42,307 nucleotides of DNA, taken from a virus. Its lineage: Duplodnaviria; Heunggongvirae; Uroviricota; Caudoviricetes. Below, piece after piece: positions 3,242 through 27,656 of the stretch. Below the pieces are notes generated by a model. It was given only the letters and a program-made list of their open reading frames with translations. It was not told where the DNA came from and searched no databases. Location of the stretch: the IMG/VR virus record IMGVR_UViG_2541047692_000013. One strand, 5' to 3'. Made by a program: the position numbers and the translations under genes. Numbering within the stretch: position 1 is the stretch's first letter; each line of letters begins with the position of its first letter.

Positions 3242-5182
3242 ATGTCTTATTTAAAATACAGAACAGATATTGATGGGCTGCGAGCTATTGCGGTTTTGCT
3301 GGTCGTGCTGTACCACGCAAACTTTCCTATTCATGGTGGTTTTATTGGTGTAGATGTTTTTTTCGTCATATCAGGATATCTCATTACCAACATCATATAT
3401 AAAGAGACTAAAAGAAATATTTTTTCATTCCTTAATTTTTACAAACGTCGAATAAAGCGATTGCTCCCAGCTTTTGCTTTTCTTCTTTTATTTTTATTTG
3501 TTTACTGCAAATTATATTTGATGCCAGATGAACTTATATCATTCTCTAAAAGTGCGGTATACGCTCTTCTTGGCATAAGCAATTTCTATTTTTTTAGTAG
3601 CACAGGTTACTTTAACTCAACCTCTTATGAACCGCTTTTACACACATGGTCGCTTTCCGTTGAAGAGCAGTTCTACATTGTATGGCCTTTCATCGTTTTC
3701 ATGCTCGCTCGGAACTCAGGGACAAAAAAAGCAATAATAATATCCTCATTACTATTTATTGTATTCCTTGGTATTTCACAGTATGGAGCGGTTAATTATA
3801 AAACAGCAGCGTATCTCCTACTGCCTTTTAGGTTCTTTGAGTTGCTCTCAGGTGCCCTACTTGCTATCTATAAAGATTCAATAACAAAACATCTGCGCCA
3901 CGGTTCTGTAATTTCACTGGTCGGCGTAATGCTGATTGTGTTGAGTTCATTATTTATAAATTCTAACACGCCATTTCCTGGGTTCACTGTTTTGCCTACA
4001 TGTTTAGGCGCTGTAATGCTTATTGCTGCAGGTGACTCATCCAAAAACTTCATTTCTAAAGTGCTGTCTTTAACTCCAGTTGTTTATGTAGGAAGAATTT
4101 CCTACTCTCTTTATTTATGGCACTGGCCTGTACTGATTCTTGCTGAATACAGGGGTATCGATCTTACGGCCTTAAATGCGACGGCGCTCATACTTATCGC
4201 ATTCATCATGGCAAGCATAAGCTATCACTTCGTTGAAAAGCCATTTAGGAAGGATTCGCTGCAATATTTCAGGACTGCATTTATAACCATCTACTTGATA
4301 CCATTAATAGTATCCGCTGCCTATGCAGCGTACATTTTAAAAAATGATGGTTTTCGCGCCAAAAGTTCAGAGTTAGTATCTGAATTAGAAGAGAGAAACG
4401 CGACAAATATTATGCGCCCACAGTGTATTGATAAATTATTTATCGGTAATGTAAATGACTGTCATCTTGGCGTTAATAAAGGCGAAGTAGATGGCGTGCT
4501 TCTTGGTGACTCCTTTGGTAATGCATATGCTTACTTTATTGATGAACTTGCGAAAGATGCTGGAATATCAATAACAGATACTACATATAGCTCAACACCT
4601 GTAATATCAGGAATTTATGTGCAGGATATCAGAAATAAGATATCTGACATAGATGCTAACCTGATAATGACATATACAAAAAACAGGCTGGAGTATGCAG
4701 CAAAACAAAAGTTCGCGATAATTTCCGTTTTTTGGGATCAGTACGGGCCACAAAATAATTACTTCCGTATCTTCGATAAAAACGGTGACGTATCGGAGAA
4801 TGCTTACCAGTTGCAATCTGAAGCAATAAAATATCTGCTGTCCAATGGCGTGAAAGTTTACATCATTGCAAGACCTTACCAGTCTATTGGCCCTGCTGCG
4901 ATAAACAAACTGCGCCAAATTAAGCTACGGCATGGGGATGTAACAACTGAAAAATATGAATACGGCGTAAAGAAAGATGATCGGATAGAATACAAGTTAA
5001 AGCAGGAGTTCCCTCAGATAACGCTAATCGATCCTAACGATGTACTTTGCCACAAAGGGGAATGTGATGCCATCGTGGATGGGAAGATCATTTTCAGAAC
5101 TGATGGTTCACACCTGAATGCTGTTGGAGCAAAAAAAATCGGGGAAGAGTATTTGAAAAACTACGCAAACCCATTTCGATAA
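3242..5182 (+). CDS. O-antigen acetyltransferase-like (acyltransferase-3 membrane domain plus SGNH-type C-terminal domain); serotype-conversion moron
   Basis: N-terminal multi-TM acyltransferase-3 signature (DGLRAIAVLLVVLYH..., FFVISGYLIT); long periplasmic C-terminal domain as in OafA-type enzymes; visibly AT-rich; converges on tailspike. Confidence 0.75.
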   Translation: MSYLKYRTDIDGLRAIAVLLVVLYHANFPIHGGFIGVDVFFVISGYLITNIIYKETKRNIFSFLNFYKRRIKRLLPAFAFLLLFLFVYCKLYLMPDELISFSKSAVYALLGISNFYFFSSTGYFNSTSYEPLLHTWSLSVEEQFYIVWPFIVFMLARNSGTKKAIIISSLLFIVFLGISQYGAVNYKTAAYLLLPFRFFELLSGALLAIYKDSITKHLRHGSVISLVGVMLIVLSSLFINSNTPFPGFTVLPTCLGAVMLIAAGDSSKNFISKVLSLTPVVYVGRISYSLYLWHWPVLILAEYRGIDLTALNATALILIAFIMASISYHFVEKPFRKDSLQYFRTAFITIYLIPLIVSAAYAAYILKNDGFRAKSSELVSELEERNATNIMRPQCIDKLFIGNVNDCHLGVNKGEVDGVLLGDSFGNAYAYFIDELAKDAGISITDTTYSSTPVISGIYVQDIRNKISDIDANLIMTYTKNRLEYAAKQKFAIISVFWDQYGPQNNYFRIFDKNGDVSENAYQLQSEAIKYLLSNGVKVYIIARPYQSIGPAAINKLRQIKLRHGDVTTEKYEYGVKKDDRIEYKLKQEFPQITLIDPNDVLCHKGECDAIVDGKIIFRTDGSHLNAVGAKKIGEEYLKNYANPFR

Positions 5183-8776: not shown

Positions 8777-8888
8777 TTTACATCGCACTCCTCTTGTGCC
8801 ATAGTAATCGGGCACTGGCAAAATCCAGTGCCGGGATTGGCGTCCCGGGTTACTAAGTGGCGCATACCACGCCAGACGTGGTTTTTTT
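8768..8888 (+). ncRNA. candidate small non-coding RNA, possibly antisense regulator of the downstream antirepressor mRNA
   Basis: Promoter at 8732-8761 and intrinsic terminator (ccacg-ccaga-cgtgg plus 7 T, 8867-8888); only an ATG-less ORF spans it; internal hairpins; two segments (8837-8843, 8853-8860) are collinearly complementary to the ant leader (8954-8961, 8968-8974). Confidence 0.3.
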
Positions 8889-9044
8889 ATGCGTTAAGCA
8901 CAGCTATATCCGAATTATGGTGGGCTGGGCAGGGGTCCGAAAGGACGCCGGTACCACTTAGGCCGGTACGCCAACCTTGTCCAGTTCACCACCAGTAATT
9001 GGCGTTGCGGTGGTGATTAAAATCACTAAGTGGAGATAACCACC

Positions 9045-21259: not shown

Positions 21260-21864
21260 CAGGACAACCTCGCAATGGTAAACTCGTCAACCGGTGGCTG
21301 TGGTTCCTGTGATTCATTCTGGCTATGCGAGCCAGCACTAAGAATCACGCGATTGTACATATTGAGAGCAAATGTACCGAGATCCGCATTCCCAGTCAGC
21401 GCCATGTTAATGGCTGCCGCAAGACGCCAGGCCAACGCCTCCATAAAAATGGCATCAAACATGTTCACATCTGAAACGCGAGAGACATACTTGAGCCATG
21501 CCTGCGGCTGGTCTGTGTAGATCAACTTTCCTGTTCCGTCGGTGTCTGCACCAACTTCGTACTGAACGCGCATTGCTGCTGTTGGATTGCGTACACCAGG
21601 AAGCATAATTTCAGTAATGCGCAGACAATCTGACGGGTACTGATACGCATATTCCCAGTCAGGCGGTGGATTGCTCGTATCTGCAAGTGCCACGCGTTTG
21701 GTAGCAAAGTTCCAGTCAAAATCAGAAAGCACAGCATCACGGCAGGCCTCAAAGTGCAGCGAACATTCCCCCGCTTCCTTACTGGCTTCCGTCAGGCTGT
21801 TAATGCTGCGGCTATTGCCAATATTGGACAGCGCACGATTGCAGATCTCTACTACAGAGGCCAT
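21259..21864 (-). CDS. tail tubular protein A / adaptor-like protein
   Basis: 201 aa, immediately upstream of and overlapping the gp12-like gene; called mainly by synteny. Confidence 0.4.
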   Translation of the reverse strand: MASVVEICNRALSNIGNSRSINSLTEASKEAGECSLHFEACRDAVLSDFDWNFATKRVALADTSNPPPDWEYAYQYPSDCLRITEIMLPGVRNPTAAMRVQYEVGADTDGTGKLIYTDQPQAWLKYVSRVSDVNMFDAIFMEALAWRLAAAINMALTGNADLGTFALNMYNRVILSAGSHSQNESQEPQPPVDEFTIARLS

Positions 21865-22193
21865 TACTCACCCCCATTGCCGTACAGGGTTTCAGCCGCT
21901 GATTTTTCTACATCCCCGGAAACAGGAGCGATCGCCATATCAGTGATCTGCAGATCGGCGCTGCGATTAACACCATCGTCAGTTTCTCTGGCAGACAGGC
22001 CTCGAATAACAGCCTTTGCAGTTATCATCACTTCTGTTCCGACGCCCTGAGGTTGCGCCTTCAGCTTATTCAATGTGTCGTTATTAAGAGTGATGCACAG
22101 CCCCCACGGGTATTCATCGCGAGTTCTGGTTTCTCCGCTCTCATCCTGGTAGCTGTCAGTGCCGGTTTTGAGGTTTACGAGTTCCATATACAC
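21864..22193 (-). CDS. hypothetical virion-module protein
   Basis: 109 aa ORF in the capsid-to-tail interval, co-directional and tightly packed. Confidence 0.4.
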   Translation of the reverse strand: MYMELVNLKTGTDSYQDESGETRTRDEYPWGLCITLNNDTLNKLKAQPQGVGTEVMITAKAVIRGLSARETDDGVNRSADLQITDMAIAPVSGDVEKSAAETLYGNGGE

Positions 22194-22237
22194 TCCTGCA
22201 ATAAAGGGGCCGAAGCCCCTTGTCGGATTCGCGAGGC

Positions 22238-22582
22238 TTACACGCCCAGTTCTTTACGCTTATCTGCGATCTTCTCGCGGAGCGTTTCGGCTTTAGCGTT
22301 ATGGTGTGGCTTCTCGTTAAAGAGCAATTCGTACTCTTCACGGAGCTTATCCAGTTCACCATCATCTGACACATCGTTGATGATTTTGGTGCTGGTTGCT
22401 GCCATAGACACCTTTCCTGCTACCTTTGCTTTTGCCTGTCTGGCTGCATCGTTAACAGGTTCCAGTGCGCTACCAGGCTCACCTTCGTATTCGATTTCTG
22501 CCCCCTCCGGCCACAGAGTGTTATGGATATGAGAGAGGCGCAGAACGCGGTATCTTGGTTTCTCACCTGACATCGATATCAC
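22238..22582 (-). CDS. hypothetical virion-module protein
   Basis: 114 aa ORF, co-directional, 1-nt gap to the upstream gene. Confidence 0.4.
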   Translation of the reverse strand: MISMSGEKPRYRVLRLSHIHNTLWPEGAEIEYEGEPGSALEPVNDAARQAKAKVAGKVSMAATSTKIINDVSDDGELDKLREEYELLFNEKPHHNAKAETLREKIADKRKELGV

Positions 22583-22583
22583 C

Positions 22584-23021
22584 TTAACCAGTTACTTTTG
22601 AGCGGATCGGATACGGCGTATTGGCATCAACATCAAGACTGATACCAGCAGTGAATTCGCCAGCCGTTAGTGGGCCAGTTGCGACGGAGTAGTTAACACG
22701 CAGATATCGCTGAACACCGGCAGGCACCTTTGCAGAAACAACTCGTTTACCTGCTGTCAGGGCGGTCTTTGCCAGTGCGCCACTATCATAAATAGTGGTC
22801 CATGAGCTGTTATTCTCACTCGTCTGCAACTGGATGTTTACAGTTGCATCACCGCTTGCCGCGGCGGCTGTGTTAACCAGCGCCCAAAACTCAAGCGGGT
22901 AACCCACGCCGATATCACGACGTTTTCCGTCAATTGGACCGAGATCGATTACGTCAGTAGAAGCCGCGGTATTCGTAACCGCCTGAGCTTCGGAGAACAT
23001 CAACAGTTTGTCGGTGATCAT
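22584..23021 (-). CDS. putative capsid decoration / minor capsid protein
   Basis: 145 aa, Thr/Ala/Val-rich beta-type composition; first gene after the major capsid gene; SD ggagaaaga. Confidence 0.4.
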   Translation of the reverse strand: MITDKLLMFSEAQAVTNTAASTDVIDLGPIDGKRRDIGVGYPLEFWALVNTAAAASGDATVNIQLQTSENNSSWTTIYDSGALAKTALTAGKRVVSAKVPAGVQRYLRVNYSVATGPLTAGEFTAGISLDVDANTPYPIRSKVTG

Positions 23022-23036
23022 CTTCTTTCTCCATTA

Positions 23037-23056
23037 GTGGGTCTGTTACGACCCAC
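23037..23056 (-). other. stable RNA hairpin immediately downstream of the major capsid gene
   Basis: 7-bp stem gtgggtc/gacccac with 6-nt loop, 16 nt after the MCP stop and before the next SD; no U-run. Confidence 0.4.
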
Positions 23057-23072
23057 AGGTTAATAACAGGCG

Positions 23073-24065
23073 TTACACCACGCGGGCTTCTGTTTCCAGA
23101 AGCGCATCAGTTTCACGGATTGGTACACCACGGAATGAAGTCCACCACTCGCCTTCTGTCTCTTTTACGCTGATCGCCAGAGATGTTTTCTCCAGAGATT
23201 GCAGATCAAGAGCCTGGCCTACAGTGCGGTTCATGTAGAACACCGGGCGACCCATGCCACGATTTGGAATGCGATGCAGTGCTTTAACCATCAACTTCGC
23301 AATATTTGCGGCAGAGGAAGGTTCTGAAAGATTGCTGACATCGATGTTTGCAATGCGAACAACATAACGCCAGTCACGCAGAGCAAGTCCGTTGTCCCAT
23401 TTGTAATGGGTACGGTAGCCTTCGTACTTGCCGCCATTAGCATCTTCCAGTGTCACCTGGCCTTTATCTTCCATCTGAATGCCAGCCTTCTGCCCTTTCG
23501 GGAAGATGCCATGCACTGTGTTTTCGCCCCACACCACTAACCAGATTGAGGTGTTATCTGTACCCGTGCCACCAGCATCAATGATGTTCTGAGCATTACC
23601 TGCAGACAGGCTGGAATAGCGGGAGGACAGTCCCATAAACTGCTGAGGGTTAACGCTGGAATCACCATAAAACAGCGTCTGCGCCATCTGCTGATTCATC
23701 GCTTCAATAAATGCGCGGTCTTCAGACAGGCGGAATTCGGCGGTATTGCCGTTCAGATCAGCCAGTGACTTATCGACTTCAGCATAGGTTTCCAGCATGC
23801 CAACGGAATCGGTTACCTGCACTGTGGTTGATTTGCTTGGCTGTACGCCATAGTTCAGCAAACGCCAGGTAGCTGAAGGTAAACCAGAACGAATGGTGGT
23901 TCGGTGTCCGGTAGGAAGGTTCCCTTCGACAAAAGGCATATCCTGAAGGATCGGGTTAGTTTGACCGAGAAGCTCGATAATCTTATCGACTTTCCCGTTT
24001 GGATCGACGCGCTTACCCCAGTCAGCCAGCGTTAGCGCAGTTAAGCCTTTAACAGCCATTGTCAT
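23073..24065 (-). CDS. major capsid protein (HK97 fold type)
   Basis: 330 aa; follows the scaffold gene; size and composition typical of podovirus major capsid proteins. Confidence 0.7.
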   Translation of the reverse strand: MTMAVKGLTALTLADWGKRVDPNGKVDKIIELLGQTNPILQDMPFVEGNLPTGHRTTIRSGLPSATWRLLNYGVQPSKSTTVQVTDSVGMLETYAEVDKSLADLNGNTAEFRLSEDRAFIEAMNQQMAQTLFYGDSSVNPQQFMGLSSRYSSLSAGNAQNIIDAGGTGTDNTSIWLVVWGENTVHGIFPKGQKAGIQMEDKGQVTLEDANGGKYEGYRTHYKWDNGLALRDWRYVVRIANIDVSNLSEPSSAANIAKLMVKALHRIPNRGMGRPVFYMNRTVGQALDLQSLEKTSLAISVKETEGEWWTSFRGVPIRETDALLETEARVV

Positions 24066-27392: not shown

Positions 27393-27469
27393 GTGGCATT
27401 AGCTCAGTTGGACAGAGCAACCGCCTTCTAAGCGGTCGGTCGCAGGTTCGAATCCTGCATGCCACGCCA
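27393..27469 (+). tRNA. tRNA-Arg (anticodon UCU)
   Basis: 77-nt cloverleaf by hand: acceptor GTGGCAT/ATGCCAC, D-arm GCTC/GAGC, anticodon stem ACCGC/GCGGT with loop CTTCTAA, T-arm GCAGG-TTCGAAT-CCTGC, discriminator G, encoded CCA. Confidence 0.85.
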
Positions 27470-27512: not shown

Positions 27513-27555
27513 GGCGGTGATGGTTTCCCTTGAAGGACTATCACCGCCCTTTTTA
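27513..27555 (+). terminator. intrinsic terminator after the tRNA
   Basis: 8-bp stem ggcggtga/tcaccgcc enclosing a 20-nt loop, followed by CTTTTTA. Confidence 0.5.
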
Positions 27556-27632: not shown

Positions 27633-27656
27633 GCCCGGTTCGCCGGGCATTTTTTT
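27633..27656 (+). terminator. second intrinsic terminator, directly upstream of the next gene's RBS
   Basis: Stem gcccgg/ccgggc with loop ttcg followed by ATTTTTTT; SD aaggtgag starts right after. Confidence 0.55.

Follow-up and report, generated by a model that had tools for sequence, protein, structure and literature searches.

The hairpin that directly follows the major capsid protein (MCP) gene in the phage DNA analyzed here is kept by selection as a sense-strand RNA structure in the late mRNA. The window, i.e., the whole stretch of 42,307 nucleotides that was analyzed (IMG/VR record IMGVR_UViG_2541047692_000013), carries this hairpin, hp1, at 23037–23056 on the minus strand. Being conserved, and matching the position, stability and conservation features of the class, hp1 is most likely an ordinary intercistronic stabilizer-type stem-loop. 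As to its role, we infer from its anatomy, tentatively and with somewhat less than even confidence, that hp1 is a barrier to 3'-exonucleases which stabilizes the upstream MCP message.

The hairpin and its surroundings in the late operon

Read on the minus strand (23056–23037), hp1 consists of GUGGGUC, GUAACA and GACCCAC, i.e., a stem of seven perfect pairs, five of which are G-C, and a loop of 6 nt, without a U-run. Folding prediction gives this as the minimum-free-energy structure, at -13.6 kcal/mol. Between the MCP stop codon (UAA, 23075–23073) and hp1 lies a 16-nt A/U-rich spacer, CGCCUGUUAUUAACCU (23057–23072, minus strand). On the 3' side, hp1 is followed by UAAU and then by GGAG (23032–23029), the Shine-Dalgarno (SD) sequence of the next open reading frame (ORF), which is located 4 nt past hp1 and 7 nt ahead of the ATG (23021–23019) and is invariant in the alignments of relatives. 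The initial annotation had described a GC-rich 7-bp hairpin without a U-run, 16 nt past the MCP stop and ahead of the next SD, and both sequence and fold agree with this description in every detail.

The MCP ORF (23073–24065, minus strand) matches the MCP of BPP-1 (3j4u_A, E 9.5e-129) and gp7 of epsilon15 (3j40_A, E 2e-85). The ORF list gives the ATG at 24065 as its start, but the SD (GAGAGGA) is too near, and the likely start is the ATG at 24059 (MAVKGL...), which has a better SD spacing and is the annotated start in relatives. Directly downstream of hp1 is the gene for a Bbp16-family capsid cement/decoration protein of 145 aa (22584–23021, minus strand), whose product matches Pfam PF21190 (E 4.7e-47), the cementing protein in PDB entry 3j4u_H (E 1.5e-25) and the decoration protein 8cjz_B (E 1.6e-22). 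In BPP-1, the MCP and the cement protein are both essential, and they are the two most abundant virion proteins, equimolar with 7 + 7 copies per asymmetric unit (PMC3863775). The cement gene is followed by a small gp9-like ORF of 114 aa from a GTG (22238–22582, minus strand; annotated with 111 aa in phiV10), which had no PDB match and no Pfam match and is the last gene ahead of a second hairpin, hp2. The first gene past hp2 encodes a 109-aa homologue of the epsilon15 capsid "staple" gp10 (21864–22193, minus strand; likely start ATG 22187; E 2.2e-21 against 3j40_N). Both decoration proteins known in the lineage, Bbp16 of BPP-1 and the gp10 staple of epsilon15, have homologues in this genome. 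The epsilon15 gp8 is also Bbp16-like, yet only gp10 was modelled on the epsilon15 capsid.

The terminator-like hp2 is found about 830 nt downstream of hp1, at 22200–22221 on the minus strand (stem-loop 22204–22221), 16 nt past the stop of the gp9-like ORF and just ahead of the SD of the gp10 homologue. It reads AAGGGGC, UUCG and GCCCCUU running into UUUAUU, and it is conserved, with a full U-tract in many relatives, e.g., UUUUUUAG or UUUUCUAG. Its counterpart in the epsilon15 RefSeq record (NC_004775.2, 7664–7686, between gp9 and gp10) is annotated as a rho-independent terminator, and in BPP-1 the counterpart separates the capsid module from the tail genes. Probably, hp2 is the actual leaky terminator closing the capsid module.

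From one sequence alone, hp1 is above chance only marginally and is not remarkable. In its 34-nt context the z-score against shuffles is -3.3 and 0/200 shuffles fold as well, in the 51-nt gap between the MCP and cement genes it is -2.6 (p = 0.02), and in a 101-nt context only -1.9. In the window, 48 perfect 7-bp hairpins were counted, nested ones among them, where about 15 are expected (42307 x 6 loop sizes / 4^7). The 51-nt gap lies inside a late operon that is otherwise packed almost gap-free, and a gap of this size holding little more than a hairpin is already suggestive. We rate hp1 above chance because of this gap in a nearly gap-free operon together with the conservation and covariation seen in relatives. 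The window-wide hairpin list contains no second hairpin with the arms of hp1, and a repeat family is therefore not supported. Rfam 15 gave no match at hp1, either at the gathering threshold over the whole window or at E <= 10 over 22100–23200, and the phiV10 record holds no annotation of hp1.

The window is 99% identical to the Escherichia phages TL-2011b, phiv142-3 and phiV10 of the genus Uetakevirus, and the phage, an E. coli prophage, is a phiV10/epsilon15-like temperate podovirus that is not T7-like. The T7 likeness drawn on in the initial annotation is not supported, and among the six ORFs of at least 600 aa no match to a Pfam RNA polymerase family was obtained. Elsewhere in the genome, adjacent Rfam matches above the gathering score lie on the plus strand at 8812–8888 (the Hfq-binding sRNA isrK, 67.7 bits) and 8913–8996 (C4 antisense RNA, 66 bits), a pair suggestive of a module in the prophage where antisense RNA controls immunity or an antirepressor in P1/P7 style. 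A tRNA-Arg(TCT) gene (27393–27469, plus strand) lies between the terminase region and the portal region, in opposite orientation to the late genes, and past it are two strong terminator-like hairpins with U-tracts (27513–27548 and 27633–27648, plus strand). An ORF of 646 aa (3242–5182, plus strand) with Acyl_transf_3 and SGNH domains is probably the O-antigen O-acetyltransferase known from phiV10, with a serotype-converting or superinfection-exclusion function.

Conservation and covariation among relatives

Relatives were gathered from GenBank phages, IMG/VR and one genome per bacterial species. The first IMG/VR scan gave 80 loci, all with a 100% identical MCP and hence useful for population variants only, and the diversity comes from the one-genome-per-species scan and from further scans that started with divergent MCPs. 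The hairpin was present in 7/7 enterobacterial species genomes (Kluyvera, Pseudescherichia, Scandinavium, Pantoea, Pseudocitrobacter, Erwinia dacicola and Buttiauxella). In these, as in all of the approximately 30 unique enterobacterial gap sequences, it begins 15–17 nt past the MCP stop, a spacing found in all enterobacterial relatives, and ends 3–5 nt ahead of the SD, while the stems are unlike in sequence (AUGGGCC.., AGCGGCCCG.., AGCGGGGC.., ACGGGCUGG.. and GGGCCGG..). A G+C-rich hairpin between the MCP and cement genes is also found in many BPP-1-like betaproteobacterial phages and in a Verrucomicrobia MAG; that of BPP-1 itself is CGGGGGCGG-GCGA-CCGCCCCCG. In the BPP-1-like clade the hairpin is located 5–7 nt past the stop and 22–33 nt from the start codon; its surroundings are G+C-rich, and an A/U-rich stretch lies downstream. 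Stem length across the hp1 family is 7–11 bp. When each unique gap of at least 40 nt was compared with its own dinucleotide shuffles, 51/62 folded better (p <= 0.05; median z -2.8).

The hairpin is optional, and its presence varies within the genus. In epsilon15 (NC_004775.2; locus L266, 1588–1601) the gp7-gp8 gap is only 12 nt and does not contain hp1, and a class of relatives with gaps of 9–31 nt has no hairpin. Rare E. coli prophages from IMG/VR (L064 and L076, about 2510–2530 of each locus) have a mismatched pair (C·A or G·A) in the hp1 stem despite an MCP that is 99.7–100% identical, and hp1 is therefore not strictly required for prophage persistence. Since the hairpin is absent in the epsilon15 class and disrupted in L064 and L076, its effect must be modulatory.

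Aligning the gaps by sequence only was of limited use, as RNAalifold found only four core pairs at -1.1 kcal/mol in a MAFFT alignment of 30 unique enterobacterial gaps. This alignment is out of register because stems and loops vary in length, and an alignment fitted to a covariance model was therefore used. The model was built from nine 7-bp-type sequences and was used to align 32 distinct sequences. In this alignment, which by its fitting leans towards structure, 97.2% of the cells pair and 6/7 pairs have changed on both sides. Such pairing and double changes were reached by 0/500 shuffles, and sliding the 3' partner left at most 56% paired. The per-sequence shuffle test (51/62) is free of the bias of the fitted alignment. 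Structure is thus kept while the sequence varies, which we count in favor of an RNA function of hp1.

Variation within E. coli prophages that have an identical MCP shows the classic path of compensatory change. At one stem pair, the loci collected have U-A in 117 cases, C-G in about 10 or more, U·G in three and C·A in one. Across the family, the non-Watson-Crick stem pairs are 18 G·U versus 2 A·C. This excess argues that the selected form is the sense-strand RNA, i.e., the late mRNA, as the opposite strand would hold mismatches at these positions. A DNA palindrome and an antisense RNA were ruled out as candidates by the compensatory changes together with the G·U to A·C counts. Among 48 unique stem-loop combinations, GNRA loops were found 16 times (2.8 expected), UNAC 13 times (1.5 expected) and UNCG five times (0.9 expected), counts that are not phylogenetically independent. 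This enrichment fits selection for stability and, since the loops vary, not for one recognition sequence.

Possible roles of the hairpin

If hp1 is a barrier to 3'-exonucleases, its anatomy would serve as follows. It would be a compact and very stable stem-loop, with a G+C-rich stem of 7–10 bp and mostly a GNRA/UNAC/UNCG-type loop cap, and its spacing of 16 nt from the MCP stop and 4 nt from the next SD would leave the stem folded between terminating and initiating ribosomes. Its action would be post-transcriptional, and it would not be a transcription terminator. The late transcript would be cut downstream by an endonuclease, or ended at the leaky hp2, after which 3'-to-5' exonucleases (PNPase, RNase II) would digest back and stall at hp1. 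The upstream message ending with the capsid gene would then outlive the downstream part, as in differential operon decay of the malE-malF type. Such 3' protective structures, conserved among enterobacteria, are documented in E. coli operons (Dar and Sorek, 2018; PMC5927463). Consistent with differential decay of the malEFG type, hp1 marks the 3' boundary of a cistron in a polycistronic transcript with a stable structure, and it is conserved in related genomes.

Two models are documented in E. coli, namely malE-type 3' protection against PNPase and RNase II, and papBA-type 5' protection after a cut by RNase E (PMC5927463). We prefer the malE type because the spacer contains no RN|WUU, because of the BPP-1-like geometry, and because one function family-wide is more economical. 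That the BPP-1-like hairpin lies so close to the stop, with G+C-rich surroundings and the A/U-rich stretch on its 3' side, favors 3'-end protection of the upstream segment. Against the barrier, the cement protein encoded by the next gene is equimolar with the MCP in BPP-1, and the need for an mRNA step-down at hp1 is hence not obvious. Since this next gene is itself a capsid gene, a rise in capsid output relative to downstream genes, as proposed in the initial annotation, is a poor fit. In addition, the enterobacterial geometry, with the hairpin 4 nt from the SD and an A/U-rich spacer before it, fits papBA-like 5' protection of the downstream message equally well, and epsilon15 and the class with 9–31-nt gaps do without the hairpin. 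At -13.6 kcal/mol, the stem is also weaker than the classical REP stabilizers. A literature search found no usable transcript data on phiV10, epsilon15 or BPP-1.

It is doubtful that hp1 instead serves the downstream cement gene. In one version of this role RNase E would cut the A/U-rich spacer and thereby produce a cement-gp9 mRNA flanked by hp1, as a papBA-type 5' protective hairpin, and by hp2 on the 3' side; documented precedents in E. coli are the papBA model itself and cleavage by RNase E immediately 5' of stable structures (PMC5927463). In the other version hp1 would be an insulator that keeps terminating ribosomes from scanning or re-initiating, and cement translation would rely only on its own strong SD; in line with this, the gaps of 9–31 nt in hairpin-free relatives would permit coupling. 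A downstream role also agrees with the enterobacterial layout, where 15–17 nt of A/U-rich single-stranded spacer precede the hairpin and only 3–5 nt separate it from the SD, and with the fact that hp1 and hp2 bracket exactly the cement-gp9 pair, the downstream segment being closed by a terminator-type hairpin (hp2, 22204–22221). However, there is no exact RN|WUU RNase E motif in the spacer, as no 5-mer of CGCCUGUUAUUAACCU fits RNWUU, although this is weak evidence because the specificity of RNase E is loose. The BPP-1-like hairpin, 5–7 nt from the stop and 22–33 nt from the start codon, lies moreover in a G+C-rich context that is poor for RNase E. In-silico disruption or deletion of the hairpin left the predicted SD-AUG accessibility alike (0.53 vs 0.55, 0.40, 0.52), and the idea that hp1 keeps the next SD accessible was dropped, as the predicted unpaired probability is similar with the hairpin intact, disrupted or deleted. 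It is improbable that hp1 lowers transcription downstream of the capsid gene as a weak, non-canonical intrinsic terminator or pause site for the host RNA polymerase. The hairpin lies directly past a highly expressed gene, and its position after the capsid gene recalls the T7 terminator after gene 10. Leaky terminators are widespread in phage operons for balancing expression (PMC9163698), and the G+C-rich hairpin of an intrinsic terminator is present. The U-tract directly 3' of the stem is missing, however. The 8 nt past the stem of hp1 are UAAUGGAG, and none of 57 unique relatives has a U-tract past the hairpin, the next 8 nt containing 1.8 U on average and in no case 5 or more. As hp1 is not listed in the consensus terminator scan of the window either, intrinsic termination by the host polymerase is unlikely, and the partial termination proposed in the initial annotation is unlikely with it. 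A terminator-like hairpin with a U-tract in many relatives and an annotated terminator as its epsilon15 counterpart is instead found in hp2, and in position it is hp2, rather than hp1, that corresponds to the gene 10 terminator of T7. Furthermore, essential virion genes lie downstream, namely those for cement, portal adaptor and tail.

Processing by RNase III, as at the R sites of T7, is ruled out by stem length, since the 7 bp of hp1 and the 7–11 bp in relatives compare with about two helical turns (roughly 20 bp) required. We find it very improbable that hp1 is an operator for an RNA-binding protein, e.g., free cement or capsid protein that would repress cement translation in an assembly-coupled manner, like the MS2 coat-replicase or P22 scaffold autoregulation. 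The hairpin does lie immediately 5' of a translation start, and a loop of the N-UAAC-N type recurs on unrelated stems (GUAACA in the E. coli prophages and in loci L194, L187 and L201; GUAAUA in L200 and L097). Yet loops vary widely in the family (GAAA, GUGA, UUCU, UUU, GCGA, UUCG), and the motifs that recur are those of generic, stable tetraloops. Neither a bulge nor a sequence signature is conserved, and the hairpin is missing from many relatives. Equally remote is a hairpin without RNA function, i.e., a DNA-level palindrome (protein-binding site or cruciform) or a neutral leftover. Such a reading could draw on the frequency of perfect 7-bp hairpins in the window and on the dispensability of the hairpin in epsilon15 and others, but compensatory changes keep the pairing as the sequence changes, unlike in protein-binding palindromes, G·U pairs strongly outnumber A·C pairs in a strand-specific way, and most unique gaps fold better than their shuffles, as given above. 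A more speculative proposal, which we consider quite improbable, is that hp1 is a modular "insulator" repeatedly gained and lost in the BPP-1/epsilon15 podovirus lineage. It would set a 1:1 output of capsid and cement, either by uncoupling cement translation from ribosomes that complete the capsid gene or as an operator for free cement or capsid protein, through the recurrent N-UAAC-N or GNRA loop that would link cement synthesis to assembly.

Of the initial interpretation as a whole, the supported parts are that the hairpin is real, that it belongs to the late mRNA just past the capsid gene with selection on the sense strand, and that a stabilizing effect is plausible, whereas the T7 likeness and partial termination are not supported. 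If hp1 is a decay barrier or an insulator, it would illustrate in a natural setting how the relative output of the two most abundant virion proteins of a temperate podovirus is tuned on one long late transcript, and it would be a small portable part for gene balancing in engineered phiV10 reporter phages. Close relatives provide natural controls, with the hairpin present in phiV10 and BPP-1 and absent from epsilon15. Otherwise, hp1 is an ordinary intercistronic stem-loop, and no current view is changed.

Comparison with known systems

The Tphi terminator of T7 resembles hp1 in that it sits just past the major capsid gene, and in its presumed purpose, more capsid than tail message. However, Tphi is a hairpin with a U-run recognized by T7 RNA polymerase, a single-subunit phage enzyme, whereas hp1 has no U-run and is found in a temperate Uetakevirus whose ORFs of at least 600 aa gave no match to such a polymerase. 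The annotated terminator between gp9 and gp10 of epsilon15 belongs to the same capsid gene module, but as the counterpart of hp2 it is a different element from hp1.

In phiX174 (after gene F) and f1/M13 (after gene VIII), weak terminator/stabilizer hairpins define stable and abundant coat mRNAs. Like hp1, these hairpins are placed at the 3' end of the major coat cistron; unlike hp1, they have terminator activity and U-rich tails, and the phages are unrelated. With the papBA-type hairpin, hp1 has in common that it is intercistronic, that an A/U-rich single-stranded stretch lies before it, and that a terminator-type hairpin (hp2) closes the segment downstream. The differences are that the hp1 spacer has no RN|WUU and that the BPP-1-like clade departs from this geometry.

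The last comparison is with the stem-loops of differential decay, i.e., the malE-malF REP and those of other E. coli operons (PMC5927463). The malE-malF element is a REP/BIME repeat, whereas hp1 is a single short 7-bp hairpin that is phage-borne. Most of the E. coli cases are located inside the next ORF and hp1 is intergenic, and the product downstream of hp1 is probably as abundant as the upstream one, which also sets it apart from these operons. What they share with hp1 is a stable structure without a U-tract at the 3' boundary of the most-needed cistron of a polycistronic transcript, conserved among enterobacteria.
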